This document shows, piece after piece, positions 8,558 through 43,347 of a stretch of 64,000 bases of DNA (positions are counted from its first letter, which is position 1; each line of letters opens with the position of its first letter). The stretch is taken from the NCBI GenBank assembly GCA_044225825.1, contig JBGAIB010000010.1, positions 20,699-84,698 of the forward strand, given 5' to 3'. Below the pieces are notes generated by a model. It saw only the letters and a list, made by a program, of their open reading frames with translations. It searched no databases and was not told where the DNA came from. Origin of the DNA: Chitinophagales bacterium. Its GTDB lineage: Bacteria > Bacteroidota > Bacteroidia > Chitinophagales > LD1. Position numbers and translations under genes: made by a program.

Positions 8558-9997
8558 TTACTGAATTACCAGTTTGCGGTGTTCGGTTTGGCCGTTGCTG
8601 TTACGCAAGGCAACTGAATAAACACCGGCCGGTATTTTGCCAAGGTTGATAGATTCAATCTCGTTAGTGAGCACCGATTGGTAAATGCACTGTCCGTTGC
8701 TGTTATAGATAGCAAGTGCGTACGTGCCTTCTTCTTTCAGCAGTTTAAAATCGCCGGAGGTGGGGTTAGGATATACGCGGAAGTTAAATGCCGGGGTTTC
8801 CTTAATACCTGTGCAGGTAGAAAGCTTACCTAAAATGAACAGTGCCGAAGCAGTAAGTGCCGGCTCTACACAACCGCCGTGGTTGAGGTTGCCGTAATTA
8901 ACCAGCTCAATAGACGGTGCACCATTAGCCCTCCAGGCACTATCGGCCTGTACGGCGTTGTGATAATTTACCTGTTCATCGGCGGTGCAATAGGCGATTT
9001 TAACCGGTTTGGCAGGGGCCCAATTCAGCATGTCGTTTTCGGCAAGGATAGCGCGCAACGGGTGGTTAGGGTCGTTAATGAAGGCATCCATGATGGAGTC
9101 CTTGATCATGTTGCGCGGTATGGGATTACAAAAGGCATCAATGTCGCCGGTAGAGAAGTTGCGGCTATAAAACATTTGCGGCAAGGTAGTATCGTAAGGG
9201 CTTTTGAAAATATCAGCCGGATTAGGATATAACTGCTGTAGCGATGGATAAACCGAGTGATAACCCAATAACAGATAAGGCAAATAGCTTGGTGTAGCAT
9301 ACGGTGTAAATGACAGCATGAGGTCGACCATGGTAACTTTTAAGTCGTAAGGGCCTGACATAGGTGCCAGCGCTACAACGTTGAACTCATTCTGGAAACT
9401 ATCCTGAATAAGTTTGGCGATGGCCATGGTGCTATAACCGCCCTGCGAATAACCGGTGATGGCTACTTCGCCGCTTAATGGCACGGTAAGCGTATCGCAC
9501 AACTGACGCGCAGCGCGCATAATGTTGATGGCGGCATAACCGGTATGGAAAGCGTTAATGTACGGGTGAATGATAATGCTGCTATCGCTATCGCCTAAGC
9601 CCAGTTCGTCGGGCATGGCCGTTACTACGCCACCGATACCTGCAAAGAAGAAACCAATGGGGCGTTCAGGACCATTGTAACTGGGCACCTGATCGCGGCG
9701 GGCGAAGGTACCGTGTGCATAACAACCTAATGCGCTGGGGCAGGTGGTGTTTTTAGGAACCACAACAATGCCGGAAGCATTTACCAGCGAATCGAGGTGT
9801 TTGTAAGGCGTTTTATAAATAACCTGGTATACATCGATAGCATATTGCGGAGCAACCGGAAGACTAAAGCCGGTGCTATTTAAAAAGCTATCTAGCTGGG
9901 CAGCCGTGTAGCTTTGTTGCAGGTGGTAGTTTACTAATTGGGCGTTGCTGCGGAAGGCAAAAAACAGTAGGGCTAATACGACATACAGACGAGTCAT
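8558..9997 (-). CDS. Secreted alpha/beta-hydrolase (lipase/esterase, GYSQGG nucleophile elbow) with a T9SS C-terminal sorting domain
   Basis: Start moved to the internal ATG giving MTRLYVVLALLFFAFRSNAQ. GYSQGG motif; C-terminal ~80 aa (FRVYPNPTSGDFKLL…GVYSVALRNSNGQTEHRKLVIQ) typical of type-A T9SS CTDs. Confidence 0.75.
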   Translation of the reverse strand: MTRLYVVLALLFFAFRSNAQLVNYHLQQSYTAAQLDSFLNSTGFSLPVAPQYAIDVYQVIYKTPYKHLDSLVNASGIVVVPKNTTCPSALGCYAHGTFARRDQVPSYNGPERPIGFFFAGIGGVVTAMPDELGLGDSDSSIIIHPYINAFHTGYAAINIMRAARQLCDTLTVPLSGEVAITGYSQGGYSTMAIAKLIQDSFQNEFNVVALAPMSGPYDLKVTMVDLMLSFTPYATPSYLPYLLLGYHSVYPSLQQLYPNPADIFKSPYDTTLPQMFYSRNFSTGDIDAFCNPIPRNMIKDSIMDAFINDPNHPLRAILAENDMLNWAPAKPVKIAYCTADEQVNYHNAVQADSAWRANGAPSIELVNYGNLNHGGCVEPALTASALFILGKLSTCTGIKETPAFNFRVYPNPTSGDFKLLKEEGTYALAIYNSNGQCIYQSVLTNEIESINLGKIPAGVYSVALRNSNGQTEHRKLVIQ

Positions 9998-10094
9998 TGC
10001 GGATAATTTTTGGATGCGGAAGTTATTGTTTTTACGGAGAAACCAGAGGTAATAACAGCACCTGCAGAATTTTGTTTTGATGTAGAGGTAGTTG

Positions 10095-10513
10095 GTAAAC
10101 AAAAAGAGCAACCCTGTTGAGGATTGCTGTTTGGTACCGAAGGTGGGAATCCCCGCCTGACCGGCTTTGCCTTTCAGTCGGGCAGGCCCGCCTGATTTGA
10201 CTTTGCCATCTCAGTCAGGCAGGGAACCCACACACCCGGAGGTGTGTAAAACAAAAAGAGCAACCCTGTTGAGGATTGCTCGTTGGTACCGAAGGTGGGA
10301 ATCCCCGCCTGACCGACTGCGTCTTACAGTCGGGCAGGGAACCCACACACCCGGAGGTGTGTAAAACAAAAAGAGCAACCCTGTTGAGGATTGCTCTTTG
10401 GTACCGAAGGTGGGAATCCCCGCCTGACCGACTTCGTCTTACAGTCGGGCAGGGAACCCACACACCCGGAGGTGTGTAAAACAAAAAGAGCAACCCTGTT
10501 GAGGATTGCTCTT
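10095..10513 (-). repeat. Tandem array of 3.5 units (period 115 bp; first unit 153 bp). Each unit copies the 3' third of tRNA-Leu (variable arm to CCA) with a ~35-nt hairpin inserted in the T-loop, plus a terminator hairpin.
   Basis: Unit starts at about 10128, 10281, 10396 and 10511 (10511 is the genuine tRNA). Nearly identical copies of tggtaccgaaggtgggaatc…gaacccacacacccggagg…aaaaagagcaaccctgttgaggattgctctt; these produce the track's look-alike ORFs 10167-10364, 10276-10479 and 10391-10621. Confidence 0.85.
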
Positions 10514-10599
10514 TGGTACCGAAGGTGGGAATCGAACCCACACACCCGGAGGGTACACGATTTTGAGTCGTGCGCGTCTACCAGTTCCGCCACTTCGGC
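10514..10599 (-). tRNA. tRNA-Leu (anticodon CAA), type II with long variable arm, CCA encoded
   Basis: Reverse complement reads GCCGAAGTGGCGGAACTGGTAGACGCGCACGACTCAAAATCGTGTACCCTCCGGGTGTGTGGGTTCGATTCCCACCTTCGGTACCA. Acceptor GCCGAAG/CTTCGGT, anticodon loop CTCAAAA, T-arm GTGGGTTCGATTCCCAC. Confidence 0.88.
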
Positions 10600-10612
10600 A
10601 GCTTTGGGAGCG

Positions 10613-10642
10613 CAAATGTAAAAGAAATCGGAAGCCCTGCAA
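10613..10642 (-). promoter_or_regulatory. Putative promoter for tRNA-Leu: -7 box TACATTTG and -33 TTG read on the minus strand
   Basis: The reverse complement of 10613-10620 is TACATTTG; a TTG sits 19 nt upstream; the tRNA 5' end lies about 14 nt downstream. Confidence 0.45.
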
Positions 10643-10659
10643 ACACTTTTATAAGCAGC

Positions 10660-13275
10660 TTATACCTGTTCTTCTAATTCTTTGTATTTCATAATCTGGT
10701 CGAGCGCATCGGGAACTACATCGCTGATAATGGTGATGAAGGAGCCTTTCTCGGCATTTTTAATGGCCCAGTCGATGGCTTCGCTTTCCAGCTTCAACAC
10801 GGTTATTTTTTTGCCGGGGTCGATGTTCTTTATACCCGTGGTAATAAGGCTGATGATCTCGTCCTCGGTTTTTCCGCGCAGGTTTTTATCCTGCCGGATG
10901 ATGATCTCATCAAACACTTTTGCGGCCTCTTCGCCCAGTTCAATGGTATCCTGGTCGCGGCGGTCGCCTACCCCTGCTACGATGCCTACCTTTTTAGTGG
11001 CATCTACCTTACGCACAAATTTGCCTATGGCCTGCATACCGTGGGCATTATGGGCGTAATCGATTAACACCGTATAATCTTTAAAGCGGAACATATTCAT
11101 ACGGCCCGGTGTTTGCGCCGGCGATGGGGCAAAAGTTTCGAGCGCTTGTTTAATATCTTCTGTTTTGAAATCGAACAAGTAAGCTGCCAATACTGCGGCC
11201 AGGGAGTTTTGTATGTTGAATTCAGCTTTGCCACCGAAGGTGAGCGGCACGTTGGCTACCTTATCGACACGGATTTTCCAGTTGCCTTTTAAGATGGTTA
11301 TAAACCCGTTTTCAAATACACAGGCAATGCCATGATTGGCACAATGCTCTTTAATACGCGGGTTGTTTTCGTCCATGCTGAAGAGCGCAATTTTGCAATC
11401 CAGTTCTTCGCGCATTTTGTAAACCAGGTCGTCGTCGGCATTTAATACGGCATAGCCTCCCGGCATTACCGATTTGGCCACCACTGCTTTTACGCGGGCC
11501 AGTTGTTCCAGTGTATCGATGCCCTGCAGGCCCAGGTGGTCGGCGGCAATATTGGTAACCACTGCCAGGTTGCAGTTATGGAAACCCAAACCGGCGCGCA
11601 GAATACCTCCACGGGCACATTCCAGCACGGCAAAATCAACGGTAGGGTCCTTCAACACAAACTCGGCACTGATGGGGCCTGTACAATCACCGCGCATCAT
11701 CAGTTGATTTTGCACATAAACGCCATCGGTAGTAGTAAAGCCAACTTTGTGGCCCATTTGCTTTACAATGTGGGCTATTAGGCGGGTAGTGGTTGTTTTA
11801 CCGTTGGTACCTGATACGGCTATAATGGGAATACGTGCAGAGGAACCCGGAGGATAGAGCATATCAATTACAGGTTCGGCTACGTTACGGCCAATGCCAT
11901 CGGTGGGGTCCAGGTGCATACGGAAGCCTGGTGCAGCGTTTACCTCCAGCACAGCACCACCATTTTCATTAATGGGCACAGTAAGGTCTTCGGCCATGAT
12001 GTCTATACCGCAGATGTCAAGCCCAATAATGCGGGCTATACGTTCGGCCATCATAATATTACTTGGGTGTACCAGGTCGGTAACATCGGTGGCAGTGCCG
12101 CCCGTAGAAAGGTTAGCGGTTGGTTTTAACCACAACTCATAACCATTATCCAGCACAGAATCGAGTGTGAGATTCTTATCTTTTAGAATGTTCAGCGTAA
12201 AGTCATCCACCTTAATAGCAGTCAGCACTTTTTCGTGTCCATATCCACGGCGGGGATCGCTGTTAACAATATCAATCAATTGCTGGATGGTGTGCTTGCC
12301 ATCGCCTATTACAGCCGCCGGTGTGCGCAATGCCGCTGCCACAAATTTGTAGTTGATTACCAATACGCGGTGATCGCGACCGGTAATAAACTTTTCGCAG
12401 ATAACTGCGCGGCCATATTTTTTTGCTGCCGCCATGCCTGCCAGGGCTTCTTCCCAAGTGCGCAGGTTAGTAGTGGCGCCTTTGCCGTGGTTACCATCCA
12501 GTGGTTTGGTAACAACCGGGTAGCCGATTTTTTTGATCGCAGCAGCTAAATCGTCTTCGTCGTAAACTACCGATCCACGAGGTACGGGCACTTCGGCAGC
12601 TTCCAGCAGGTTTTTGGTATCTTCTTTATCGCAGGCAATTTCTACAGCGATGGAAGAAGTGGTAGAAGCTACGGTTGCCTGTATGCGTCTTTGATTTTTC
12701 CCGTAACCCAATTGTACCAACGAGTGCCGGTTGAGGCGTATCCATGGGATATTGCGTTTGATTGCTTCCTCTACAATTGATCCTGTACTTGGCCCCAGGC
12801 GTTCGTCTTCTCGTATTTCGCGGAGCTTTTGAATATCGGCGGCTAAATCATACTCCACATTGGCAATAAGCGCTTCGGCAATAGATACGGCTGCTTTAGC
12901 TGCGAAAACACCGGCCTTTTCCTCGTAATACGAAAACACTACGTGGTATACACCAGGCGTGCTTGTTTCGCGGGTGCGTCCAAAGCCGCAGTCCATACCG
13001 GCAAGGGTTTGTATTTCGAGGGCAATGTGTTCAATTACATGTCCCATCCAGGTGCCTTCTTTAACGCGAGAGAAGAAACCGCCCTCGGTGCCTTCGCTGC
13101 ACCGGTGCGAATACATGGTAGGGAACATCTTTTCGATACGTTCGGAAAAGCCGGGTATTTTATTGGTGGGCTTTTGCTCCATGTCCTCCAGATCGAGGCG
13201 CATTACAATTAACTTGTGACGTTTATTGCTCCAGTAGTTGGGGCCCTTCATTACTTTAATGTCGATAATCTTCAT
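10660..13275 (-). CDS. cphA: Cyanophycin synthetase
   Basis: 871 aa; CphA N-terminal domain (MKIIDIKVMKGPNYWS), ATP-grasp middle domain and C-terminal Mur-ligase-like domain (IIAVSGTNGKTTTTRL). Confidence 0.9.
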   Translation of the reverse strand: MKIIDIKVMKGPNYWSNKRHKLIVMRLDLEDMEQKPTNKIPGFSERIEKMFPTMYSHRCSEGTEGGFFSRVKEGTWMGHVIEHIALEIQTLAGMDCGFGRTRETSTPGVYHVVFSYYEEKAGVFAAKAAVSIAEALIANVEYDLAADIQKLREIREDERLGPSTGSIVEEAIKRNIPWIRLNRHSLVQLGYGKNQRRIQATVASTTSSIAVEIACDKEDTKNLLEAAEVPVPRGSVVYDEDDLAAAIKKIGYPVVTKPLDGNHGKGATTNLRTWEEALAGMAAAKKYGRAVICEKFITGRDHRVLVINYKFVAAALRTPAAVIGDGKHTIQQLIDIVNSDPRRGYGHEKVLTAIKVDDFTLNILKDKNLTLDSVLDNGYELWLKPTANLSTGGTATDVTDLVHPSNIMMAERIARIIGLDICGIDIMAEDLTVPINENGGAVLEVNAAPGFRMHLDPTDGIGRNVAEPVIDMLYPPGSSARIPIIAVSGTNGKTTTTRLIAHIVKQMGHKVGFTTTDGVYVQNQLMMRGDCTGPISAEFVLKDPTVDFAVLECARGGILRAGLGFHNCNLAVVTNIAADHLGLQGIDTLEQLARVKAVVAKSVMPGGYAVLNADDDLVYKMREELDCKIALFSMDENNPRIKEHCANHGIACVFENGFITILKGNWKIRVDKVANVPLTFGGKAEFNIQNSLAAVLAAYLFDFKTEDIKQALETFAPSPAQTPGRMNMFRFKDYTVLIDYAHNAHGMQAIGKFVRKVDATKKVGIVAGVGDRRDQDTIELGEEAAKVFDEIIIRQDKNLRGKTEDEIISLITTGIKNIDPGKKITVLKLESEAIDWAIKNAEKGSFITIISDVVPDALDQIMKYKELEEQV

Positions 13276-13413
13276 GCACGGTGGTTTTTGTTAAGGCTAG
13301 TTGCACAGGTAATTATTTGCAATTTAAAATTTTAGCACCATTGGTTTAGTTTGTTGAAAAATACTTAGACTTTTAGAGGGTGTTTAAGCAATTTTGCGCC
13401 CTTAACGCAGCGA

Positions 13414-14286
13414 ATGACACCAAAGGGGAAATTGATTGCCATAGGAGGTGCCGAAGACAAAGGCACTGATTTAGAGGCAGGTATAATAAAACGTAGTCAG
13501 CTTAATTTTTTTGAGATAGGGATTTTAAAAACCATTTCGGATTTATTGGCGGACAAAGGCAATCGTATAGAGATTGTTACCACAGCTTCCTCGATACCCG
13601 ATGAGGTAGGAGAGAACTATGTAAGCGCTTTTGCCAAACTGGGTTGCGGCAATGTAGGTCATCTGAAAATACGCGTGCGCGATGATGTTTTTACACCGGA
13701 CTATATTGAGCGGATTAAGACCTGTAAGGCGGTGATGTTTTCAGGCGGCAACCAGTTACGGTTATCATCCATTTTCGGTGGGACTGAGTTTTTGGACATT
13801 GTGATCAGCCGCTATTTGCACGAAGATTTTATTATAGCCGGCACCAGCGCAGGTGCGATGGCTATGAGCAACACCATGATATACGAAGGCAATGCCACCA
13901 ATGCGCATTTAAAAGGTGAAGTAAAAATTACTACCGGCCTGGGTTTTATCAATGGCGTAATCATCGATTCGCATTTTAATAAGCGCGGGCGTTTCCCCCG
14001 ACTGGCGCAGGCAGTTGCCGCCAATCCCGGTGCCATTGGTATTGGGTTAGGTGAAGACACCGGCGTAATTGTGGTGAATGGAGAGGAGTTACAGGCTATA
14101 GGCTCCGGTGCTGTAATGATTCTGGACGGGCGTAACATCCATTACAATAACATCGCTGATATTGAGTTTGATGAGCCTATATCGGTTGAGAATATTATTG
14201 TGCACGTAATGGCCAAAGGGAATAGTTATAATGTGCGCACCCGTAAGTTTAAAGCTGCTGAGGTGATTGTTAAGCCTGCAGAATAG
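13414..14286 (+). CDS. cphB: Cyanophycinase (peptidase S51)
   Basis: 290 aa; MTPKGKLIAIGGAEDKG…, catalytic Ser in GTSAGAMAMS; divergent from cphA. Confidence 0.88.
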   Translation: MTPKGKLIAIGGAEDKGTDLEAGIIKRSQLNFFEIGILKTISDLLADKGNRIEIVTTASSIPDEVGENYVSAFAKLGCGNVGHLKIRVRDDVFTPDYIERIKTCKAVMFSGGNQLRLSSIFGGTEFLDIVISRYLHEDFIIAGTSAGAMAMSNTMIYEGNATNAHLKGEVKITTGLGFINGVIIDSHFNKRGRFPRLAQAVAANPGAIGIGLGEDTGVIVVNGEELQAIGSGAVMILDGRNIHYNNIADIEFDEPISVENIIVHVMAKGNSYNVRTRKFKAAEVIVKPAE

Positions 14287-14297
14287 TCAATTGCTTT

Positions 14298-15233
14298 TTA
14301 CCTGTAGATAGCTGCTTCTTCCTGTCCATCGCTGGTTTTAAGCCCCCGGTACATGCCTTCGCTGTTAAAGCAAAGTTCAATGTTTCCGTTTTGGTCTATT
14401 GCTATAAGACCGCCTTCGCCTTGTAAAGCTACCAGCTTTTTCATCACTACTTCTTCGCAGGCCTGTTTTAGAGTGAACCCCTTGTATTCCATCAGGCAGC
14501 TAACATCATAAGCCGTTACGGCACGGATAAAGAGTTCGCCATGGCCGGTGCAGGAAATGGCGCAGGTATTGTTATTTGCGTACGTACCTGCCCCGATAAT
14601 GGGAGAATCGCCCACGCGCCCAAATTTTTTGTTGGTCATGCCGCCGGTGGAAGTGGCTGCGGCCAGATTGCCCTGCTGATCCAACGCTACAGCTCCCACG
14701 GTGCCGAATTTTTTATCATCCCCGGTTTGGACGTTGTGATCCAGGAAGGAGCTATCTTCTTCTTTAGCTTTGAGGAATTGCTGATATCGGAAGTCGTCGT
14801 CAAAATAGGTGTCGGGCATAAAGGTAAGGCCCTGCAGTGCCGCAAATTGCTCGGCTCCTGCACCACACAAAAAAACATGGTCGCTTTTTTCCATTACAGC
14901 ACGGGCGAGTGTAACGGGGTTCTTTACATTTTTAATGAGTGATACGGCACCTGCGGAGCGATCTTTACCCCACATAATACTGGCATCCATTTCATGCTTG
15001 CCCTCGTTATTAAAAACTGCACCTCTGCCGGCATTAAACAACGGACAATCCTCCAGGTTACGCACGGTGGCTTCTACAGCATCCAAAGCACTGCCTCCCC
15101 GGGCAAGTATGTTATAACCTTCCTGTAATGCGGTTTGTAAGGCCTGTATATATAACTGTTCTTTTTCGGCGGTTAAAGAGGAGCGCAGAATGGTGCCTGC
15201 GCCGCCGTGTAAGGCAATTGCAAATTTGCTCAT
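14298..15233 (-). CDS. iaaA: Isoaspartyl dipeptidase / plant-type L-asparaginase (Ntn hydrolase)
   Basis: Start set at MSKFAIALHGGAGT (the track ORF extends to 15323 with an Arg-rich, implausible leader). Autoproteolytic GTVGAVA motif. Completes a cyanophycin-to-Asp/Arg degradation set. Confidence 0.82.
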   Translation of the reverse strand: MSKFAIALHGGAGTILRSSLTAEKEQLYIQALQTALQEGYNILARGGSALDAVEATVRNLEDCPLFNAGRGAVFNNEGKHEMDASIMWGKDRSAGAVSLIKNVKNPVTLARAVMEKSDHVFLCGAGAEQFAALQGLTFMPDTYFDDDFRYQQFLKAKEEDSSFLDHNVQTGDDKKFGTVGAVALDQQGNLAAATSTGGMTNKKFGRVGDSPIIGAGTYANNNTCAISCTGHGELFIRAVTAYDVSCLMEYKGFTLKQACEEVVMKKLVALQGEGGLIAIDQNGNIELCFNSEGMYRGLKTSDGQEEAAIYR

Positions 15234-15429
15234 GCGGCTAAAGTAGAATTTTTCATGCTTTGCAGCTTTGGGTTGCCGGCTTGTCCTAATTCTTCTAATT
15301 CTTACTGAAAGGGATGAAGCCATGTGTTGATGTCTATCTTTACGTTAAGAGTTACTAAATAGGCTGTTTACGGTCTGGCATCTTGTGTAAAGCGGCCGCA
15401 GTAACATCTACTAACCAAAACAGCAGCAG

Positions 15430-16287
15430 ATGAAAAACGTTATCCTAACAGCAGTTACACTGCTCGTGCTAATCAGTGGCGCGTGGGCGCAGGGGGCAAA
15501 AACCGCAGAAACTAAATCAACTACCCGCGGTAGTGTAGCAGATACCATAGAGGCAATCTATCTGGATTCTGCATCGGTACACCTGTATATACCGGGCAGT
15601 ATAAGTAAGGGTTCAAACGGTGCGGGTTTGGCCTACAACCCCGTTAAGAAACTGTATTATGCGGCTTTTGCCGGCAACAGTTCATTTCCATTAATAGTTT
15701 TTAAAGCAAATGGCGATGTACTTGCTGATACCTGCATTACCGGTATTGATTTACGGGGTATATGGTATAATAGCAAAACCGGCATGCTGGAAGGGAATGG
15801 GTATTCGACGGAAGGCATTGTACAATATAAAACAGATAAAAAGGGTGTGCCGGTGAGCTATGTGGTAGTATTAGAAGATCTGGAGCAGCCCGATGATAAC
15901 AGCACTGCTGCATTTGATGCCATGAATAATGAGCTGTTGTTTCTGGACCCTGACTTTGGACTTGAGGATGTAGAAATTGTACGGTATAACAAAACCACCG
16001 GACAAAGATTAGGCAGCATGACGCTTTATGTAGATGCAGAAACTATAGATTACCTGAATACCTCTACCGTAGTATATACCGGTATTAAAGGCGCTGAACT
16101 GGGTATACTTGATTACGACCTTGCCATTATACATCTGTTTGATATGGCTACAGGAGATGAGGCCAAAACAGTGTATTTGCCCTATGATGCTTTAACACAG
16201 GACCGTTTCAATTTTTCGTATGCCAACGGCATGTTTTGGTTGTTTGATACGGAGTACCGGGTGTGGGATGGATTTAAAATGAAGTAA
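15430..16287 (+). CDS. Hypothetical secreted protein
   Basis: Signal peptide MKNVILTAVTLLVLISGAWAQ; no recognisable catalytic motif. Confidence 0.6.
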   Translation: MKNVILTAVTLLVLISGAWAQGAKTAETKSTTRGSVADTIEAIYLDSASVHLYIPGSISKGSNGAGLAYNPVKKLYYAAFAGNSSFPLIVFKANGDVLADTCITGIDLRGIWYNSKTGMLEGNGYSTEGIVQYKTDKKGVPVSYVVVLEDLEQPDDNSTAAFDAMNNELLFLDPDFGLEDVEIVRYNKTTGQRLGSMTLYVDAETIDYLNTSTVVYTGIKGAELGILDYDLAIIHLFDMATGDEAKTVYLPYDALTQDRFNFSYANGMFWLFDTEYRVWDGFKMK

Positions 16288-16373
16288 TACAATCCCCGGC
16301 TTGTAAAGCACAAACGCCAAATACGAACACAGGTGGCAGAGGCGGCGTAAACGGTAAGCAAAACCTGTTAACT

Positions 16374-16886
16374 ATGCCACCCATCAACGCCACATTTCCT
16401 GCACAAGTAGGACACCATTACGATGTTTTAAGTGATTTCGATGCAGCCTGCAACGTACTTAACCGCAGCATCCTGCATTTTTACATGGCTCCCAAAAACC
16501 TGGTGAAAAAGGCCGGGCCAATCCTGGAGAAATTTGTTTCGGCTTTTCCGCCAAAAGGAAAGAAGGCCGATAAACAAAACATGAACAGCGTATTGGAATT
16601 TATTGATAAGCTGGATGACTTTACTGCCAAAACCATTGAGTTGTACGAAGAACACAAAATGTACAATGCAGAAAGTGCTGCTTACCTGAACAAGATAAAG
16701 CAATTACACCGCAAGTATCAGAAGAACAGTACCCTTTTTACGAAGGAGTATGCCCAACTGGCACCGGAGTTTGTAGTGTTGCAAAACGAGTTGGATAAGA
16801 TTACCGAGAAAGCCGTGAACGTTAGCGGCATGCTGAAAGATATAGAAGAGAAGTGGACCGCACTCAGCAAGTCCATTAACATATAA
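16374..16886 (+). CDS. Hypothetical protein, helical and K/E-rich; an alternative start at 16485 is possible
   Basis: 170-aa ORF followed by a strong terminator; no recognisable family. Confidence 0.5.
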   Translation: MPPINATFPAQVGHHYDVLSDFDAACNVLNRSILHFYMAPKNLVKKAGPILEKFVSAFPPKGKKADKQNMNSVLEFIDKLDDFTAKTIELYEEHKMYNAESAAYLNKIKQLHRKYQKNSTLFTKEYAQLAPEFVVLQNELDKITEKAVNVSGMLKDIEEKWTALSKSINI

Positions 16887-16913
16887 GAGTGGTTTTTTGG
16901 TTTCACACAGGGC

Positions 16914-16942
16914 CTTCCGGGCTTCGTGCCCGGAAGTTTTTT
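16914..16942 (+). terminator. Rho-independent terminator
   Basis: CTTCCGGGC-TTCGT-GCCCGGAAG followed by TTTTTTC. Confidence 0.7.
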
Positions 16943-17031
16943 CTCCTTACCTGTTAACTACCGAAAGCGACTGATGTAACAATTGGGTGTTGATTATTGT
17001 GCCGCCTACGGCCAATTTTCTTCGCCCTTTT

Positions 17032-17595
17032 TTAAATTTCGCCCTTATCGAGCAGCAATTTTGTTTTCAGGATACTTGCCACCGACAGGCCATCGCGAAT
17101 TTCGCCACGCATGCACATTTCGTAAACTTCGTTAAAAGGCAGTTTACGTAAGGTAAGTTGTTCGTCTTCTTCGGGTTCGGCGCCTATATAGCTTAGTCCG
17201 CGTGCTACAAACGTATAGGAGATCTCATCGGTTGTACTGTTGGAGAGCTGCATCTCGAGGATCATCGTCATTTTTTCAGCTTTTAAACCTACTTCTTCGT
17301 GCAGTTCGCGATGTGCGGTTGCCTCGGGTGAAGTGCCAAGCGGGCAGCCCCCTTCGGGTACTTCCCATTCATAGCTGTTTAAGGGGTACCGGTATTGCCC
17401 TACCAACCAGGTGTTATTGTTTTCGTCGAGCGGTATGATTGCAATAGCCAGCGTTTTAAAATGAACCACGCCATAAATGCCGTTGTTGCCGGCTGGGTTC
17501 AGCACTTTGTCTTCAATAATGCCAATCCATTTGTTTTCGTATTTCACCTCCGAGGACAGTTTGGTCCAGGGGTTTGGCGCTTCGTTCATTTTCAT
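17032..17595 (-). CDS. NUDIX hydrolase (ADP-ribose pyrophosphatase-like)
   Basis: Nudix box GGCPLGTSPEATAHRELHEEVGL. Confidence 0.85.
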   Translation of the reverse strand: MKMNEAPNPWTKLSSEVKYENKWIGIIEDKVLNPAGNNGIYGVVHFKTLAIAIIPLDENNNTWLVGQYRYPLNSYEWEVPEGGCPLGTSPEATAHRELHEEVGLKAEKMTMILEMQLSNSTTDEISYTFVARGLSYIGAEPEEDEQLTLRKLPFNEVYEMCMRGEIRDGLSVASILKTKLLLDKGEI

Positions 17596-17600
17596 AGCAG

Positions 17601-18347
17601 CTATTTTACGCGGGCAACGATAAAGATAGAAGTGCTGAGCATAGGTACGGTAGTGGTATCGGTATTAAAGATGTTATTTACCAGCCAGCGTTTCAGGGTA
17701 CCTTCCTTCAATACATCCATAGGAGCCGTGATGTATTTCATTTCCATGATCTCGAAACCTGATTCTTCCAGTAATTTTTTAATACGCGGTTTAGTATAGA
17801 TACGTGCATTGGCAAAGCGCTCGTGTATGGGGCGCGGCAGCCAGCTAAAGAAGGGCACCCGGTTCCAGGGCAACAAAGGCAGGTTAGCGCCGTGAGTTTC
17901 GAATACCCACCATTTGTTAGGAACCGAAATGGCGCATAAGGCTCCCGGTTTTAACCAGCGCGTAAAACGTTTTACGGTTTCTTCGCTATTAAAGTGTTCA
18001 ATTACTTCAAAGCAAATAAGACGGTCGTATTGTTGTGGTAGGTCTTCGTGTTCAATATCCTTTATTACAATATCGCAGTTGGTAATGCCCTGGGCCTGTT
18101 TTGCTTTATTAAACTCGGCCGTATGGTCAAAAATATCAACGCCGGTGCAGCTTTTCATTGCGCCGCTCATTAGTAAAAGGGTAGCTCCGTTACCGGCACC
18201 TATTTCAAGCAGGTTCAGATTTTTATCGCAAAAACCGGGTATTTGTTTTACCAGGTCTACACGCCGGGTAATAATTTTATCGGTGCTATCGGCAGGGCGG
18301 CCCAGGTAATGTGCACCATCAAAAAGGGTTTCATCTACACGCGTCAT
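17601..18347 (-). CDS. Class I SAM-dependent methyltransferase
   Basis: Motif I LLEIGAGNGAT; stop/start overlap with the upstream CDF gene. Confidence 0.8.
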   Translation of the reverse strand: MTRVDETLFDGAHYLGRPADSTDKIITRRVDLVKQIPGFCDKNLNLLEIGAGNGATLLLMSGAMKSCTGVDIFDHTAEFNKAKQAQGITNCDIVIKDIEHEDLPQQYDRLICFEVIEHFNSEETVKRFTRWLKPGALCAISVPNKWWVFETHGANLPLLPWNRVPFFSWLPRPIHERFANARIYTKPRIKKLLEESGFEIMEMKYITAPMDVLKEGTLKRWLVNNIFNTDTTTVPMLSTSIFIVARVK

Positions 18348-19342
18348 GCTTCCAATCCGTGTCTTTGGTTACGTAATACATTTTCCAGGTTCCACTCAAT
18401 ACGCGCTTTAAAAGGCTGTTGCCTTACCGGGCAATCACTAATCTGACATATAGCGCAACTACGCGGCAGGCAGGGGTCGCCGTGGATAAAGAATTCTACC
18501 TGCGTGGCATATTTATCATTCACTGTTTTCGCTATTTCTTCCAATAGATTATGTGCTTCTTCCATGGTATCGTACCAAGGCACCGTTGCATGGCAGTCGA
18601 TATGCAACTTGTTACCATACTGGATGATGCGCAGGTTGTGCACGTCAATCCATTCGGGTTTGCGATGGCTGTTCAGCAATTCAATAACGGATTTAACCGT
18701 TTGTTCGTCCACCTCATCCATAATACCGCCAATAGAACGGCGTAGCAACTTGATACCCGTAACTATAATTACACCACCAAAGATGATGGCTACCACGTTA
18801 TCGAGAAAGTAAAGTTTGGTAAGCAGTATTAAGCCCAGGCCAACCAGGATGCCGAAGGATGAATAAGCATCGCTTTTAAGGTGTTCGCCATCGGCTTTTA
18901 AAACCAGCGATTTTTCTTTTTCTCCACTCTTAGCCAGGTAATACCCGAGAAAATAATTAATGACACCGGATACGACCACAATGCCGATACCAATATCAAG
19001 ATGCTCGAGCGTACGTGGTTCGAAAAAGGCGAAGATGCTTTTGGTAATGATGAGGATTCCGGCGATGATGATTAGAATACCTTCGAAGCCGGCGGAGATA
19101 AATTCCACCTTGCCATGACCATAGGGGTGATCGTAATCCTTTGGCTTGCCTGATAAATAAAGGCTATACAGAGCAAATGCACCGGCCACCACGTTGATGA
19201 TAGACTCCAGCGCATCGGTAAGGATGGTATTAGAATGGGTGAGGAGGTAAGCAATGAACTTGGCCGACAGCAACAATACACCTGCTACCAGAGCAACAAG
19301 CTGGTAATTAAAAAGGCGCTGTTCGGTTGAGTTTTTTTCCAC
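18344..19342 (-). CDS. Cation diffusion facilitator (CDF) family metal efflux transporter with a Cys-rich C-terminal tail
   Basis: Six TM helices, HxxxD-type motifs, C-terminal cytoplasmic domain plus the extra tail HGDPCLPRSCAICQISDCP. Confidence 0.82.
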   Translation of the reverse strand: MEKNSTEQRLFNYQLVALVAGVLLLSAKFIAYLLTHSNTILTDALESIINVVAGAFALYSLYLSGKPKDYDHPYGHGKVEFISAGFEGILIIIAGILIITKSIFAFFEPRTLEHLDIGIGIVVVSGVINYFLGYYLAKSGEKEKSLVLKADGEHLKSDAYSSFGILVGLGLILLTKLYFLDNVVAIIFGGVIIVTGIKLLRRSIGGIMDEVDEQTVKSVIELLNSHRKPEWIDVHNLRIIQYGNKLHIDCHATVPWYDTMEEAHNLLEEIAKTVNDKYATQVEFFIHGDPCLPRSCAICQISDCPVRQQPFKARIEWNLENVLRNQRHGLEA

Positions 19343-19345
19343 CTG

Positions 19346-19960
19346 TTATATTTTACTGCAGATAGGGCAGGTGGCTTGGTTATGGCCCCTGGCCGGACAA
19401 TATTCGCGCCCTAAATAAATGATTTGCAGGTGAAGTTTGTTCCAAAGTTTTTCGGGAAACAACCTTTTGGCATCCTTTTCGGTTTGCTCCACGCTTTTAC
19501 CGTTGCTCAATTTCCAGCGATGCATAAGGCGGTGGATGTGCGTATCGACCGGGAAGGCTGGTTTATCAAAAACCTGGGTCATGATAACCGATGCAGTTTT
19601 ATGACCTACGCCGGGTAGTTCTTCAAGCGCTTCGAAGGTGTCGGGCACTTGGCCCTTATGTTTTTCAATTAATATTTCGGAAAGGCGATGAATAGCTTTT
19701 GATTTTGCCGGTGCAAGGCCACAGGGTCGTATAATATCCTCTATGTCCTTTACATCCAGCTTCACCATTTTTTGTGGTGTATCGGCCCGTTCAAATAAAA
19801 AGGGGGTAGTAAGGTTTACCCGTTTATCGGTACACTGGGCGGAAAGTAATACCGAAATAAGCATGGTGTAGGCATCCTTATGGTCCAGCGGAATTTGCGG
19901 ATTGGGGTAAAGGCGGTTCAGCGTTTTGATGATAAATTCAACGCGCTCACTTTTAGTCAT
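19346..19960 (-). CDS. nth: Endonuclease III (DNA glycosylase/AP lyase)
   Basis: HhH-GPD (LPGVGHKTASVI) and the C-terminal 4Fe-4S cluster loop C-x6-C-x2-C-x5-C. The ATG at 19960 is preferred over the track's TTG start at 19978. Confidence 0.9.
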   Translation of the reverse strand: MTKSERVEFIIKTLNRLYPNPQIPLDHKDAYTMLISVLLSAQCTDKRVNLTTPFLFERADTPQKMVKLDVKDIEDIIRPCGLAPAKSKAIHRLSEILIEKHKGQVPDTFEALEELPGVGHKTASVIMTQVFDKPAFPVDTHIHRLMHRWKLSNGKSVEQTEKDAKRLFPEKLWNKLHLQIIYLGREYCPARGHNQATCPICSKI

Positions 19961-28319: not shown

Positions 28320-30974
28320 ATGCTGCGAAAAGTTTTAATTGGCCTGGGTGTTTTTTTGTTGCTGCTGATTGCCACGGCAATAGCACTGCCGTTTATTTTT
28401 AAGGATAAGATTAATGCACTGGTAAAAGAGGAGATCAATAAAAACCTGAATGCCAGGGTAGATTATGCCGATTACGGCCTAACGCTTATAAGCAGTTTCC
28501 CCAATTTTACCCTTACGCTTGATAATCTTTCGGTGGTGGGTATTGATAATTTTAAAGGCGACACTCTTGCTGCGGTAAAGCATACTGCAGTAACGATTGA
28601 CCTGATGAGTATGTTTAAGGGCGAGAAATACAAGTTACTGGCCTTTAAACTGGAAGAACCTGTGCTACATGCCATTGTGGATTATGATGGAAAGGCCAAC
28701 TGGGATATCGTTAAGCCAAGCACAACCTCTACCACTACCGAGCAATCGAAATTTGCGCTGGAAGCCAAAAAGGTGCAAATAACCGACGGCGAACTAAGCT
28801 ATGAGGATAGAAAAGGAGGGGCTGTAGCTTCCATCCACGATCTGGATTTTGAAGGCAGCGGAGATGTAACCCAGGATATTTATGATTTAACTACCAAAAC
28901 CAATATAGCTGCGCTGAGCTTTAAGAATGGGTTGGTATCATATTTAAGCAAAGCTAAACTGGAGGCTATCGTAAATCTATCGATTGATAACCGGGTTAAC
29001 AAGTATACGTTTAAGGACAATTCCATTAACCTGAATGATTTGGGATTGCAGTTTGACGGCTATGTGCAAACACAGAAGGAAGACTTAAACCTGGATGTGA
29101 ACTTTAAATCGAAGAAGACAGAATTCAAGAGCATATTATCGTTGCTGCCTGCCGTTTATGCTAAGGATTTTGATAAGATTAAAACCAGCGGTACACTTGA
29201 CCTGAAAGGCTCCGTAAAAGGGTTATATAACGTCAAAACCTATCCGGCCTTTAACCTGGATTGGAAGGTTGGAAATGCTATGTTCCAATATCCCGATTTG
29301 CCGGTAGCCGTACGCAACATCAATATAGTTTCTACTGTGGTTAAGCCACAGGGCAGCCTGGACCTGACAGTTGTGGACATCCCCAAACTGCATTTTGAAG
29401 CTGGAAGCGACCCGGTGGATGCCAAGATCAACGTTAAAACACCTGTAAGCGACCCTAATGTTAGTGCAGATATACACGGGACCATGAACCTGGCCAATGT
29501 GCCTAAGTTTTATCCTATGGAAGGCGTGAAAAGCATGGCAGGCTTGCTGAAATTAAATCTGCTGTTTAAGGGGCGTAAAAGTGATTTGGATAAGAAGAAT
29601 TACGAAGCTATTACCGCGGCAGGTGATGCCAACATCAGCGGGTTATATTACGACAGTAAGGATTTACCAATGCCGGTACGGGTAAACTCGATGCAGATGA
29701 ATTTTAGCCCACAGAATATTAAGTTAAGTAACCTGGTTGCCGTTGTAGGCCATACTGATTTAAATGCTTCGGGCACGCTGGATAACTTTATGAGCTATCT
29801 GTTTGGTAAGGGAGATTTAGTAGGAACACTGAATTTAAAATCTGGGGTATTTGATGCCAATGAATGGCTGAGCAAAGATGCCGATGCCCCTGTAAGTAAT
29901 ACTGCCACAAAGGACACCTCGCATACACAGTTTTTTAAGGTGCCGGCGCAAATCAACTTTACCGCTAATTCGGAGTTTGGAAAGATATTCTATGACAAGA
30001 TTGTGCTGCAAAATGTAAAAGGAGAGGTAGTAGTTAAAGATGAGGCGATTCACCTGAACAATCTGTTCGCGAATCTGCTTGGTGGTAGTGCTACCATTTC
30101 GGCGGATTATGTAACCAAGAATCTGAATAACCCGGATGTTAGTTTTACCTACGACATCAAGGATTTTGATATTCAGCAAACCTACAAGGCAGTTGACCTG
30201 AGTTCGAAGATGGCCCCGGTAATCAAGCATATCAACGGTGCATTCAGCAGCGATTTGAAAGGAAGCGGAAAACTAAATCCGGATATGAGTGTAGATTATA
30301 AATCGCTGACCGGAGATGGTAAGGTACAATTGACCAATGCCAAAATTACAGGTTTGCCTATGCTGGCCGAGATTACCAAGGTGGCAAAAATACCGGCCCT
30401 TCAAAATCTGGAATTAAAAGATGGCTGGACAGTTTTGAAGTTTAAGGACGGTAAAGTGAATGTGGACCCTACTGATTTTAAATTCGGCAATGGCTACAAC
30501 ATCAACTTTAAAGGCGCTAACGGTTTCGATCAAACCATTGATTACGATGTGCGCCTGGATGTGCCAAGCAAGGAGCTAGGCCCTGCCACTTCGGTAGCGC
30601 AAAGCATGTTGGCCAAAGTGCCCGGGGTAAGTGCTACTATGCCTGATGTAGTCGGATTTCTATTTAAAGTAACTGGCCCGTTCTCCAAGCCGCAGGTAAA
30701 ACTAAACAAGGTAACGGCGGGCGGCAGTTCAGTGAAGGATGTATTGACAGATACTGCTAACGACCTGAAAAAACAGGCAGAGGAAGAGGCTAAGAAGAAA
30801 GCCGATGAGTTAAAGAAACAGGCCGAAGATCAGTTTAACAAGCAGAAACAGGCTGCACAGGAAGCCGCAGATAAAGCCCGTAAAGAGGCAGAGCAAAAGG
30901 CACGCGAAGCGGCTGAGAAAGCAAAGAAGGAAGCTGAAGACAAGCTCAAAAATGTAATCAAGTGGCCTAAGTAA
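28320..30974 (+). CDS. AsmA-family outer-membrane biogenesis protein with a C-terminal K/E/A-rich coiled-coil tail
   Basis: N-terminal TM anchor, long AsmA-like periplasmic region, last ~120 aa highly charged (KKQAEEEAKKKADELKKQAEDQ…). Confidence 0.7.
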   Translation: MLRKVLIGLGVFLLLLIATAIALPFIFKDKINALVKEEINKNLNARVDYADYGLTLISSFPNFTLTLDNLSVVGIDNFKGDTLAAVKHTAVTIDLMSMFKGEKYKLLAFKLEEPVLHAIVDYDGKANWDIVKPSTTSTTTEQSKFALEAKKVQITDGELSYEDRKGGAVASIHDLDFEGSGDVTQDIYDLTTKTNIAALSFKNGLVSYLSKAKLEAIVNLSIDNRVNKYTFKDNSINLNDLGLQFDGYVQTQKEDLNLDVNFKSKKTEFKSILSLLPAVYAKDFDKIKTSGTLDLKGSVKGLYNVKTYPAFNLDWKVGNAMFQYPDLPVAVRNINIVSTVVKPQGSLDLTVVDIPKLHFEAGSDPVDAKINVKTPVSDPNVSADIHGTMNLANVPKFYPMEGVKSMAGLLKLNLLFKGRKSDLDKKNYEAITAAGDANISGLYYDSKDLPMPVRVNSMQMNFSPQNIKLSNLVAVVGHTDLNASGTLDNFMSYLFGKGDLVGTLNLKSGVFDANEWLSKDADAPVSNTATKDTSHTQFFKVPAQINFTANSEFGKIFYDKIVLQNVKGEVVVKDEAIHLNNLFANLLGGSATISADYVTKNLNNPDVSFTYDIKDFDIQQTYKAVDLSSKMAPVIKHINGAFSSDLKGSGKLNPDMSVDYKSLTGDGKVQLTNAKITGLPMLAEITKVAKIPALQNLELKDGWTVLKFKDGKVNVDPTDFKFGNGYNINFKGANGFDQTIDYDVRLDVPSKELGPATSVAQSMLAKVPGVSATMPDVVGFLFKVTGPFSKPQVKLNKVTAGGSSVKDVLTDTANDLKKQAEEEAKKKADELKKQAEDQFNKQKQAAQEAADKARKEAEQKAREAAEKAKKEAEDKLKNVIKWPK

Positions 30975-33239: not shown

Positions 33240-34541
33240 TTAGTTTTTCTGGAACTTTTGAACGCTGATTTGGTCGCCCTGCATAAAACGCAGGAAGTAA
33301 ATACCGGCGGGTTGACTGCTGAGGTCAAGCGTGGTAGCATTCAATAAAATTCCGTCGTTCAGTTTTTCTCCTAAAGCATTCAATAAGGTGTATTGCACCT
33401 GGCTTAGTTGCGAAGGCAAGGTAATGTGCAGGCTGTTGCCGGCAGGGTTAGGATACACTGAAATTTTTGCCAGCGGTGTTTGTGGGTCTTTAATGTTGGT
33501 AGCGCCGTTTACAAATACGTCAGCTATACCTGCGCGTGAGGTTTGCAGCATAGCGTGCATTACATCAATTTGATGGTGTGTAAACATATTCAGGCAACGG
33601 TCGTCGCTATAGTCCATGTAGTTCTCAATCATATCCGGCACATCAACAGGTGCATCTACGCAGGAGTTGTCGGTGGTATCGCAGGTTTGTTGGTGTGCAT
33701 CCGAAGCCTTCGGGGTATCATCAATGCCATCGCCGTCAAATTTGTTGCAGCCGGTGGTATCGCCCCATATGTGACGTAAGCCAAGGTAGTGGCCGATTTC
33801 GTGCACGGCACTGCGACCACCTGCCACAGTTGGGTCAATAGGGGCAGTAAAATTGCGGCCTACACAAGGGTAATGTAATACTACACCCTGGTGTGCCGAG
33901 TCGGTAGAAGAACCAGCATCCCAGTTGGGGGCATTAACAGGAGGGAAGGCATAGCCCAAAACACCAAGGCCGTTCATGATGTTACAAACCCATACATTCA
34001 GATAACGATCAGTTGGCCAGCAATCCTTGCCGCCGGTGGCAGCTGTTTTTACGTTATCGGTAAATGGTTCGAAACCCAGAAAACCGGTAGGTGCCCCCTG
34101 CGTGCGGGTAATACCGTTTGTCGGGTTGCCATCGGGATCGGTAGTAGCCAGAACAAACTCAATATGGGTATCGCCCGCAACAGGTTTAAACACGTCGCGT
34201 GTTTTTACCGTATCGGCTGTAGTACGGCGGTAATCTTCATTCAGCACTTCGATTTGCGATTGAATTACTGAATCAGGGATGTTTTCTTCAGGGGCTGTAT
34301 ACACCACATGGAATACTACGCGGATGCGGTAAATGGTGTCATCGGCGCTGCGGTTATCGCGGTTTGATTTTGCTAGCTGCAAGGCCTTTTCGAAACAGGT
34401 ATTTACCTGCTGTTCGTAACCCGGATGTTGCTGGTCAAACGATTTGATAACATCGTAGCTGCCGCAGCGTTTGGTATACGTTTGGGCAAAGAGCGATGCC
34501 ATAAGGCAGAGCGCGAAAGCGGTACTAAGTATTCTTTTCAT
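33240..34541 (-). CDS. Secreted M43 (pappalysin/cytophagalysin-type) zinc metalloprotease with a T9SS C-terminal sorting domain
   Basis: HEIGHYLGLRHIWGD zincin motif; CTD …ISVYPNPAGNSLHITLP…GIYFLRF…. Confidence 0.85.
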   Translation of the reverse strand: MKRILSTAFALCLMASLFAQTYTKRCGSYDVIKSFDQQHPGYEQQVNTCFEKALQLAKSNRDNRSADDTIYRIRVVFHVVYTAPEENIPDSVIQSQIEVLNEDYRRTTADTVKTRDVFKPVAGDTHIEFVLATTDPDGNPTNGITRTQGAPTGFLGFEPFTDNVKTAATGGKDCWPTDRYLNVWVCNIMNGLGVLGYAFPPVNAPNWDAGSSTDSAHQGVVLHYPCVGRNFTAPIDPTVAGGRSAVHEIGHYLGLRHIWGDTTGCNKFDGDGIDDTPKASDAHQQTCDTTDNSCVDAPVDVPDMIENYMDYSDDRCLNMFTHHQIDVMHAMLQTSRAGIADVFVNGATNIKDPQTPLAKISVYPNPAGNSLHITLPSQLSQVQYTLLNALGEKLNDGILLNATTLDLSSQPAGIYFLRFMQGDQISVQKFQKN

Positions 34542-36709: not shown

Positions 36710-36775
36710 ACGGTTGGCAAACATAGCCGAATTAGGGACTTTGCGAAACGCCGCCCCCGCCGGGTGGATAATTTG

Positions 36776-43088: not shown

Positions 43089-43347
43089 GTATAAAATTAG
43101 GGCGACTAAATTAAACTTCGTAGCGACTTTATGCGGAAAAATTAATTGATCTATATCAAGACCCGAGAACACCCAAATGTGTTGCATTAAAGCCGGCCGG
43201 GCCGGCAACAAGTTGTCCACTTAAATATAAGGGTTTTAAACCGTTGTGCAAGGCGGTTTGGGTAAACAGGTGTGTTTACACCGTAATTTGGTGTTCACAA
43301 TAAATGGTTTAGGTTTGCCACACTCTTAAAACCAAAACAAAAGCTAT

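Follow-up and report, generated by a model that had tools for sequence, protein, structure and literature searches.

The window analysed here is a stretch of 64,000 nucleotides from a Chitinophagales bacterium (contig JBGAIB010000010.1 of assembly GCA_044225825.1, positions 20,699 to 84,698 of the forward strand), and it contains three adjacent genes, cphA, cphB and an iaaA-type gene, that we read, with a probability of about 0.85, as a resident chromosomal module for the storage of cyanophycin. The reading draws on the identities of the genes, their intact catalytic residues, their distribution, their synteny and their composition, all of which are observed directly in the window and in related loci. 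In the proposed cycle, cyanophycin synthetase 1 (CphA1) would use ATP to polymerise Asp and Arg into multi-L-arginyl-poly-L-aspartate, and a zinc-peptidase-like site in its N domain (Cx19HxxEH) would let it generate its own primers. Under nitrogen demand, the cytoplasmic serine peptidase CphB would cut the polymer into beta-Asp-Arg dipeptides, which IaaA, self-cleaved before Thr178, would then split into free Asp and Arg. The initial annotation of this DNA had proposed such a complete synthesis and two-step degradation to Asp and Arg; the proposal is well supported, with all three predicted enzymes intact by homology. The genes and the intergenic region between the first two are located as follows.

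10660..13275, minus strand: cphA, cyanophycin synthetase 1, 871 aa, with N, ATP-grasp G and Mur-ligase-like M domains
13276..13413, no strand: divergent cphA/cphB intergenic (promoter) region, 138 bp
13414..14286, plus strand: cphB, intracellular cyanophycinase, S51 serine peptidase, 290 aa
14298..15233, minus strand: iaaA-type isoaspartyl aminopeptidase / plant-type asparaginase, an N-terminal nucleophile (Ntn) hydrolase, 311 aa from the ATG at 15233

Open reading frames (ORFs) occupy these coordinates in the orientations that had been proposed: cphA and cphB diverge from their 138-bp spacer, and cphB and iaaA converge, with stop codons 11 bp apart. Curated profiles and Pfam likewise place each product in the family first assigned to it, namely cyanophycin synthetase, cyanophycinase and isoaspartyl dipeptidase.

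The product of cphA scores 1277.3 bits against TIGR02068 (cut-off 850) and 1198.5 bits against NF010623 (cut-off 877). Its domains follow in the order PF18921 (the Cyanophycin_syn N domain), RimK/ATP-grasp families, PF08245 (Mur_ligase_M) and PF02875 (Mur_ligase_C), which bears out its earlier description as an 871-aa synthetase with N, ATP-grasp and Mur-ligase domains. It aligns end-to-end with CphA1 of Synechocystis sp. UTEX2470 (PDB 7lg5; also 7txv), at 993 bits (phmmer) and 51% identity (BLASTP), and resembles it in length and in N-G-M architecture. Residue roles were taken from a study that mutated residues to inactivate each CphA active site (PMC9262961). In the G domain, H263 corresponds to Synechocystis H267; in the M domain, D580/H581 correspond to D585/H586 and the P-loop GTNGKTT is found at positions 489-495; and W666 corresponds to W672, the Trp of tetramerisation. 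The N-domain motif Cx19HxxEH is complete (C59, H79, E82 and H83) and is accompanied by H57, R70 and E87. The initial annotation had named a CphA without its catalytic residues as a result that would speak against it; every residue that was checked, including those of the N-domain motif, is conserved. According to the same study, the N-domain Cx19HxxEH produces primers by cleaving cyanophycin and renders the enzyme independent of added primer, and the complete motif is present in 83% of CphA1 sequences in nr70, a non-redundant set (PMC9262961). Because the motif is intact, the window CphA1 is predicted to be primer-independent as well. The two enzymes differ in that the window CphA belongs to a large Bacteroidota clade, with a long branch between them, and in that its activity is a prediction only.

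The product of cphB is recognised with similar clarity as a cyanophycinase of the S51 fold family (PF03575, Peptidase_S51), scoring 228 bits against TIGR02069 with its cut-off of 126.6. Its full-length alignments with solved cyanophycinases score higher for PDB 7uqv (180 bits) than for 3en0, the cyanobacterial CphB of Synechocystis PCC 6803 (122 bits). Its residues S145 (in GTSAG), H187 (in DSHF) and E214 (in GEDT) are conserved and align with the motifs of both structures; they correspond to the Ser-His-Glu catalytic triad reported for 3en0, which the three proteins have in common. Most of the pocket residues of 3en0 and 7uqv are also present. In particular, Q114, D185, R191, R193 and R196 are kept, and the Gln before the catalytic His is replaced by Ser, so that the Synechocystis protein reads DQHF and the window protein DSHF; this makes five of six pocket residues, counted on the pocket reported for Synechocystis CphB (a Gln, an Asp-Gln pair and three Arg). 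The family model begins at residue 7 of CphB, and its N terminus (MTPKGKLIAIGG) has no hydrophobic leader. Because the protein has neither an N-terminal extension nor a leader relative to the family model, it is predicted to be of the intracellular type, with no signal peptide, and not an extracellular CphE.

The third product matches PF01112 (Asparaginase_2) at 387.7 bits and aligns over its full length with the precursor of E. coli IaaA/EcAIII (PDB 2zak) at 338 bits. It shares with the E. coli enzyme (2zak, 1k2x) the Ntn-hydrolase family, the G|T autoprocessing site and the Asp-binding residues. The autoproteolysis site reads FG|TVGAVALD, with its Thr aligned to residue 1 of the solved beta subunits, and the substrate-binding segments GRVGDSP and CTGHGE, which supply the Asp-binding Arg, Asp, Thr and Gly, are conserved; the residue roles are those given in PMC10206079. 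The window gene differs from that of E. coli in being embedded in a cyanophycin cluster and in a profile score to which we return below. The cluster IaaA of Roseivivax halodurans hydrolyses beta-Asp-Arg yet is promiscuous (PMC10206079), and the window IaaA probably serves both cyanophycin turnover and the clearance of isoaspartyl peptides.

The start of iaaA deserves comment, since the longest ORF (14298-15323, minus strand) encodes 341 aa and the ATG at 15233 is internal to it (M31). The 310-aa orthologues in the three most closely related loci (L001-L003) align from M31 and DNA similarity fades upstream of it, and residues 1-2 of E. coli IaaA align to residues 31-33 of the long ORF. Because both these orthologues and E. 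coli IaaA align from there, 15233 is the better start. The 30 extra residues of the long ORF are rich in arginine and do not form a signal peptide. The nucleophilic Thr is therefore T208 in the numbering of the long ORF and T178 when counted from M31.

The spacer between cphA and cphB contains a conserved core (TTTTTTTCAACA ... AAAATTTTAAATTGCAA) that is common to the window, to L001-L003 and to a further locus (L013), and that was not seen in the more distant loci of the intergenic alignment. The core has a putative regulatory function; no recognisable regulator site could be assigned to it in the alignment.

The combination of the three genes has precedents. A survey of 27,349 complete genomes (Sharon & Schmeing, Sci Rep 2023; PMC10206079) counted 1,614 with cphA1; in genomes that also have a cyanophycinase gene, the two were clustered in 81% of cases. 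The survey also found cphA1, cyanophycinase and iaaA clustered in 49 of the 153 RefSeq genomes with all three, Roseivivax halodurans being one example with the same three enzyme families. Within the Bacteroidota, CphA1 was present in 86 genomes, all 86 with a cyanophycinase and only 22% with a recognisable IaaA or IadA, and the authors call the dipeptidase of most Bacteroidota still unidentified (PMC10206079). The three-gene arrangement is thus already documented, and the window is a further instance of it; its host is an uncultured species of a Chitinophagales lineage, carrying what is for the Bacteroidota the minority, complete version. It adds one more example of heterotrophic Chitinophagales, many of which are known only as metagenome-assembled genomes (MAGs) from freshwater or wastewater, with a complete and apparently primer-independent cyanophycin cycle, and it is a Bacteroidota case in which a clustered IaaA would cover the last step of degradation, a step usually unaccounted for in the phylum. 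The relevance is to nitrogen storage in freshwater and wastewater communities and to the mining of enzymes for biopolymer production; outside annotation, the cluster matters little.

The distribution of the genes among relatives indicates how the module came to be in this genome. A scan for CphA relatives, with one genome per species, returned 501 stretches, of which the best 80 were analysed, making 81 loci with the window. All of these best 80 are from Bacteroidota, mostly Chitinophagales MAGs together with Taibaiella, Edaphocola and Flavipsychrobacter; along with the secretion-system sorting domains on neighbouring genes described below, this agrees with the Bacteroidota host that had been proposed. 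Their CphA proteins are 72-92% identical to that of the window, against 51% for Synechocystis CphA1. In a neighbour-joining tree rooted on the latter, a phylogenetic check that the initial annotation had called for, the window CphA and the best 80 form one clade on a long branch. Of the 80 loci, about 50 have cphB as the divergent neighbour of cphA, 27 contain iaaA within ±10 kb, and about 20 have iaaA immediately next to cphB, in one of two orientations. The order found in the window (iaaA> <cphB cphA>) is scattered over the whole tree, including a deep branch (L075), and the co-directional variant (<iaaA <cphB cphA>) forms a single clade. Moreover, the pairwise identities of CphA, CphB and IaaA co-vary, with Pearson r of 0.71-0.83. 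These genes would have been inherited as a module within the Bacteroidota lineage, with cphB and iaaA often lost or relocated in other branches.

Several loci show what such branches look like. Within 10 kb of cphA there is neither cphB nor iaaA in L030, L034, L036, L043, L046, L055, L059 and L062, nor in the Taibaiella/Edaphocola loci L058, L064, L066, L069 and L070. In several of these loci, the genes after cphA encode a pair of polytopic membrane proteins (f3 and f6 families), which are its commonest neighbours; by sequence appearance they look glycosyltransferase-like and unrelated to cyanophycin.

The three closest loci carry the same three genes, at identities of 91-92% for CphA, 82-84% for CphB and 76-78% for IaaA. 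Further, L001 and L003 have kept a right-flank block, homologous to the window genes at 15430-19960, at 50-88% identity (the contig of L002 ends ahead of this block). A comparison of window positions 10660-15430 with L001:7889-17472 and L003:8040-15276 shows that in both loci the orientation of the cph unit to the block is the reverse of that in the window, with 2.5-5 kb of other genes between the two. At the cphA end of the unit, homology to L001-L003 is lost within a few bases of the stop codon, and at the iaaA end it is lost about 60-100 bp upstream of the ATG. Since the right-flank block accompanies the module in L001 and L003 as it does in the window, the alignments indicate that the module was already in this neighbourhood in their common ancestor with the window. 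Beyond the cphA stop codon, the window contains the following elements, which lie outside the module.

10514..10599, minus strand: tRNA-Leu(CAA), neighbouring gene (ARAGORN; Rfam RF00005, 58.5 bits)
10098..10513, minus strand: three tandem pseudo-copies of the tRNA-Leu 3' half with terminators, on the 3' (far) side of the tRNA

The junction between the tRNA and cphA appears in these comparisons to be a lineage-specific rearrangement breakpoint. A lineage-specific inversion, with breakpoints hugging the three-gene unit, would have put the module beside the tRNA-Leu gene, the direction of the rearrangement being itself an inference. The initial annotation had suggested a comparison of synteny and had held that presence of the cluster at the same locus throughout the family would refute its horizontal acquisition. 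Both points have a divided outcome: at a genus-like distance the same three genes recur in L001-L003, with the right flank kept but inverted in L001 and L003, and farther out, across the order, the flanks are unconserved and a common locus is not found.

Some observations weigh against an inherited storage module. Outside L001 and L003, cphA has no conserved flanking genes, no other gene family occurs in more than 8 of the 81 loci, and inheritance at one fixed locus across the order is not supported. Ancient transfers within the Bacteroidota may account for this pattern; at 75% CphA identity, the unconserved flanks are explained just as well by synteny having decayed in general. One clade (L004, L005, L006, L010, L011 and L074) has CphA proteins 82-83% identical to that of the window and CphB proteins of only 56-58% identity, which suggests that cphB was to some extent replaced or evolved at a faster rate. 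Furthermore, the best NCBIfam match of the window IaaA, the beta-aspartyl-peptidase model NF007589, reaches 387.4 bits and remains under the equivalog cut-off of 567, which would place the protein in the broader family without certifying its orthology to E. coli IaaA; by analogy with the promiscuous IaaA enzymes of other clusters, a housekeeping role is likewise likely. Lastly, the enzyme activities and the physiological role of the module in this organism are predicted from homology. With regard to the divergent CphB clade, its cphB gene is always followed by a gene for an uncharacterised protein of about 260 aa (family f4), and in L011 and L074 iaaA is 3.6-4.6 kb away; these loci may represent a variant degradation module.

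A different view of the same breakpoints is that the cph unit is a discrete recombination module in Chitinophagales that was flipped or relocated against the tRNA-Leu array, which would then mark an undescribed recombination hot spot. We consider this unlikely, while granting it some weight. If it were true, the novelty would be in the array of tRNA fragments and in the mobility of the module, and not in cyanophycin metabolism.

It is improbable that the locus mainly scavenges exogenous cyanophycin or beta-Asp-Arg from co-occurring cyanobacteria instead of serving internal storage. Scavenging clusters of cphB plus a dipeptidase gene have been described (PMC10206079), and many of the related MAGs are from lakes and wastewater; the clusters in the literature, however, characteristically have transporters and no cphA1 (PMC10206079), whereas the window has a complete and catalytically intact cphA, and Pfam scans found no transporter gene inside or adjoining the module. 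CphB and IaaA both lack signal peptides and N-terminal extensions.

Slightly less probable still is that iaaA is a general protein-repair or asparaginase gene standing beside cphB by chance, with cphA and cphB as the functional module. The promiscuity retained by IaaA enzymes of cph clusters and the rarity of a recognisable IaaA or IadA, at about 22% of cphA1-bearing Bacteroidota (both PMC10206079), are compatible with such an incidental position, as is the score of the window protein under the equivalog cut-off. Against it, iaaA directly adjoins cphB in about 20 of the 80 loci, in two orientations and all over the CphA tree, the identities of IaaA co-vary with those of CphA at r = 0.83, and the rearrangement breakpoints leave iaaA within the unit.

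The initial annotation had taken the proximity of a tRNA gene and of att-like (attachment-site-like) repeats as consistent with horizontal acquisition of the cluster, and the least credible of the alternatives is accordingly an acquired island, integrated site-specifically at tRNA-Leu, with the tRNA-derived repeats as att remnants. Its premises are real: the cphA stop codon is 60 bp from the 5' end of tRNA-Leu(CAA), partial copies of the tRNA 3' end are present at about 10098-10513, homology to L001-L003 ends right outside the three genes, so that the module acts as a discrete unit, and cphB and iaaA are patchily distributed in related loci. The arrangement of these elements, however, is the wrong one. 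Integrases that target tRNA genes insert at the tRNA 3' end, from which an island would extend, and the location of the cluster on the 5' (promoter) side of the tRNA thus counts against integration there; the repeats are on the 3' side, as contiguous tandem units of 115-152 nt that enclose no cargo. No direct or inverted repeats bracket 10660-15233 beyond short matches at chance level. None of the 37 window ORFs scanned against Pfam between 2 and 54 kb proved to be an integrase, transposase or phage gene (the regions at 1-2.1 kb and 54-64 kb and two ORFs of more than 1,700 aa, 37263-43187 and 56485-61626, lay outside these scans), and a tRNA gene adjoins cphA in none of the 37 related loci that were scanned.

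Composition was compared among 41 window genes, following a check of GC content and codon usage that had also been suggested. The z-scores for GC, for GC at third codon positions (GC3) and for synonymous-codon log-likelihood are 1.43, 0.86 and 0.48 for cphA, -0.24, -0.42 and -0.39 for cphB, and 1.25, 0.15 and -0.25 for iaaA, so that all three genes are within about 1.5 standard deviations on each measure. In tetranucleotide and dinucleotide signature, 10660-15233 is as distant from the window as a whole as equally long sliding windows are on average. With a composition and codon usage typical of the window, nearest homologues (the best 80) that are all from Bacteroidota, and the module lying close to the shared right-flank block in L001 and L003 too, there is no sign of recent horizontal acquisition, and an island integrated at the tRNA is largely refuted.

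The tRNA-derived array is the only odd feature nearby and is a matter separate from the cyanophycin cluster. Its three tandem units (10098-10513, minus strand) follow directly 3' of tRNA-Leu(CAA), with nothing between. Each unit consists of a segment of the tRNA variable arm and T stem (CCTCCGGGTGTGTGGGTT), a GC-rich hairpin of 36 nt at the position of the T loop, the 3' T stem and acceptor with CCA (GATTCCCACCTTCGGTACCA), and a copy of the intrinsic terminator of the tRNA. The inner units are 97-98% identical, and the outermost one is 152 nt long, with two hairpin inserts. One array unit folds much better than shuffled sequence (z = -6.5). The 36-nt insert was not found elsewhere in the window, and exact-pattern scans of JGI metagenome contigs for the array junction and for the tRNA terminator gave 0 matches each. 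A single match of a viral contig to the 3' end of the tRNA-Leu gene (L082) was considered as a phage attachment site (attP) and rejected, being part of a phage tRNA-gene array: L082:3859-6899, on an IMG/VR phage contig, is an array of 14 tRNA genes, and its tRNA-Leu(TAG) has the same T-arm and acceptor sequence as the window tRNA-Leu.

On the other side of the tRNA, the 60-bp spacer (10600-10659, minus strand) contains a sequence that, read by eye, matches the Bacteroidota type of promoter (TTTG-N19-TAcaTTTG); 13 nt separate its end from the mature 5' end of the tRNA. The spacer shows no terminator-like site between cphA and tRNA-Leu(CAA), and cphA transcripts may for this reason read into the tRNA gene.

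The remaining genes of the window include many housekeeping functions, namely PNPase, lipoate-protein ligase, an amidase, a NUDIX protein, a CDF transporter, Endo III, iPGM, RecQ, IDH and FtsY. The other neighbours identified by the Pfam scans are a GNAT protein, a lipase of the type IX secretion system (T9SS), a methyltransferase, an OmpA protein, glycosyltransferases, an SPFH protein, M43 peptidases, a radical-SAM methylthiotransferase and TonB receptors. T9SS C-terminal sorting domains are found on three secreted hydrolases (8558-10111, 33240-34541 and 34565-36724, all minus strand), one lipase-like and two M43 metallopeptidases; the domains confirm that the host is one of the Bacteroidota and has a type IX secretion system. 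The 884-aa ORF at 28320-30974 (plus strand) has no Pfam match at E <= 1e-5. Near iaaA, the genes at 15430-16287 and 16374-16886 (both plus strand) match neither Pfam nor NCBIfam, and they are only 50-55% identical to their counterparts in L001 and L003, compared with 74-88% for the adjacent genes. The two very large ORFs of the window, 37263-43187 and 56485-61626 (both minus strand), encode 1975 and 1714 aa.

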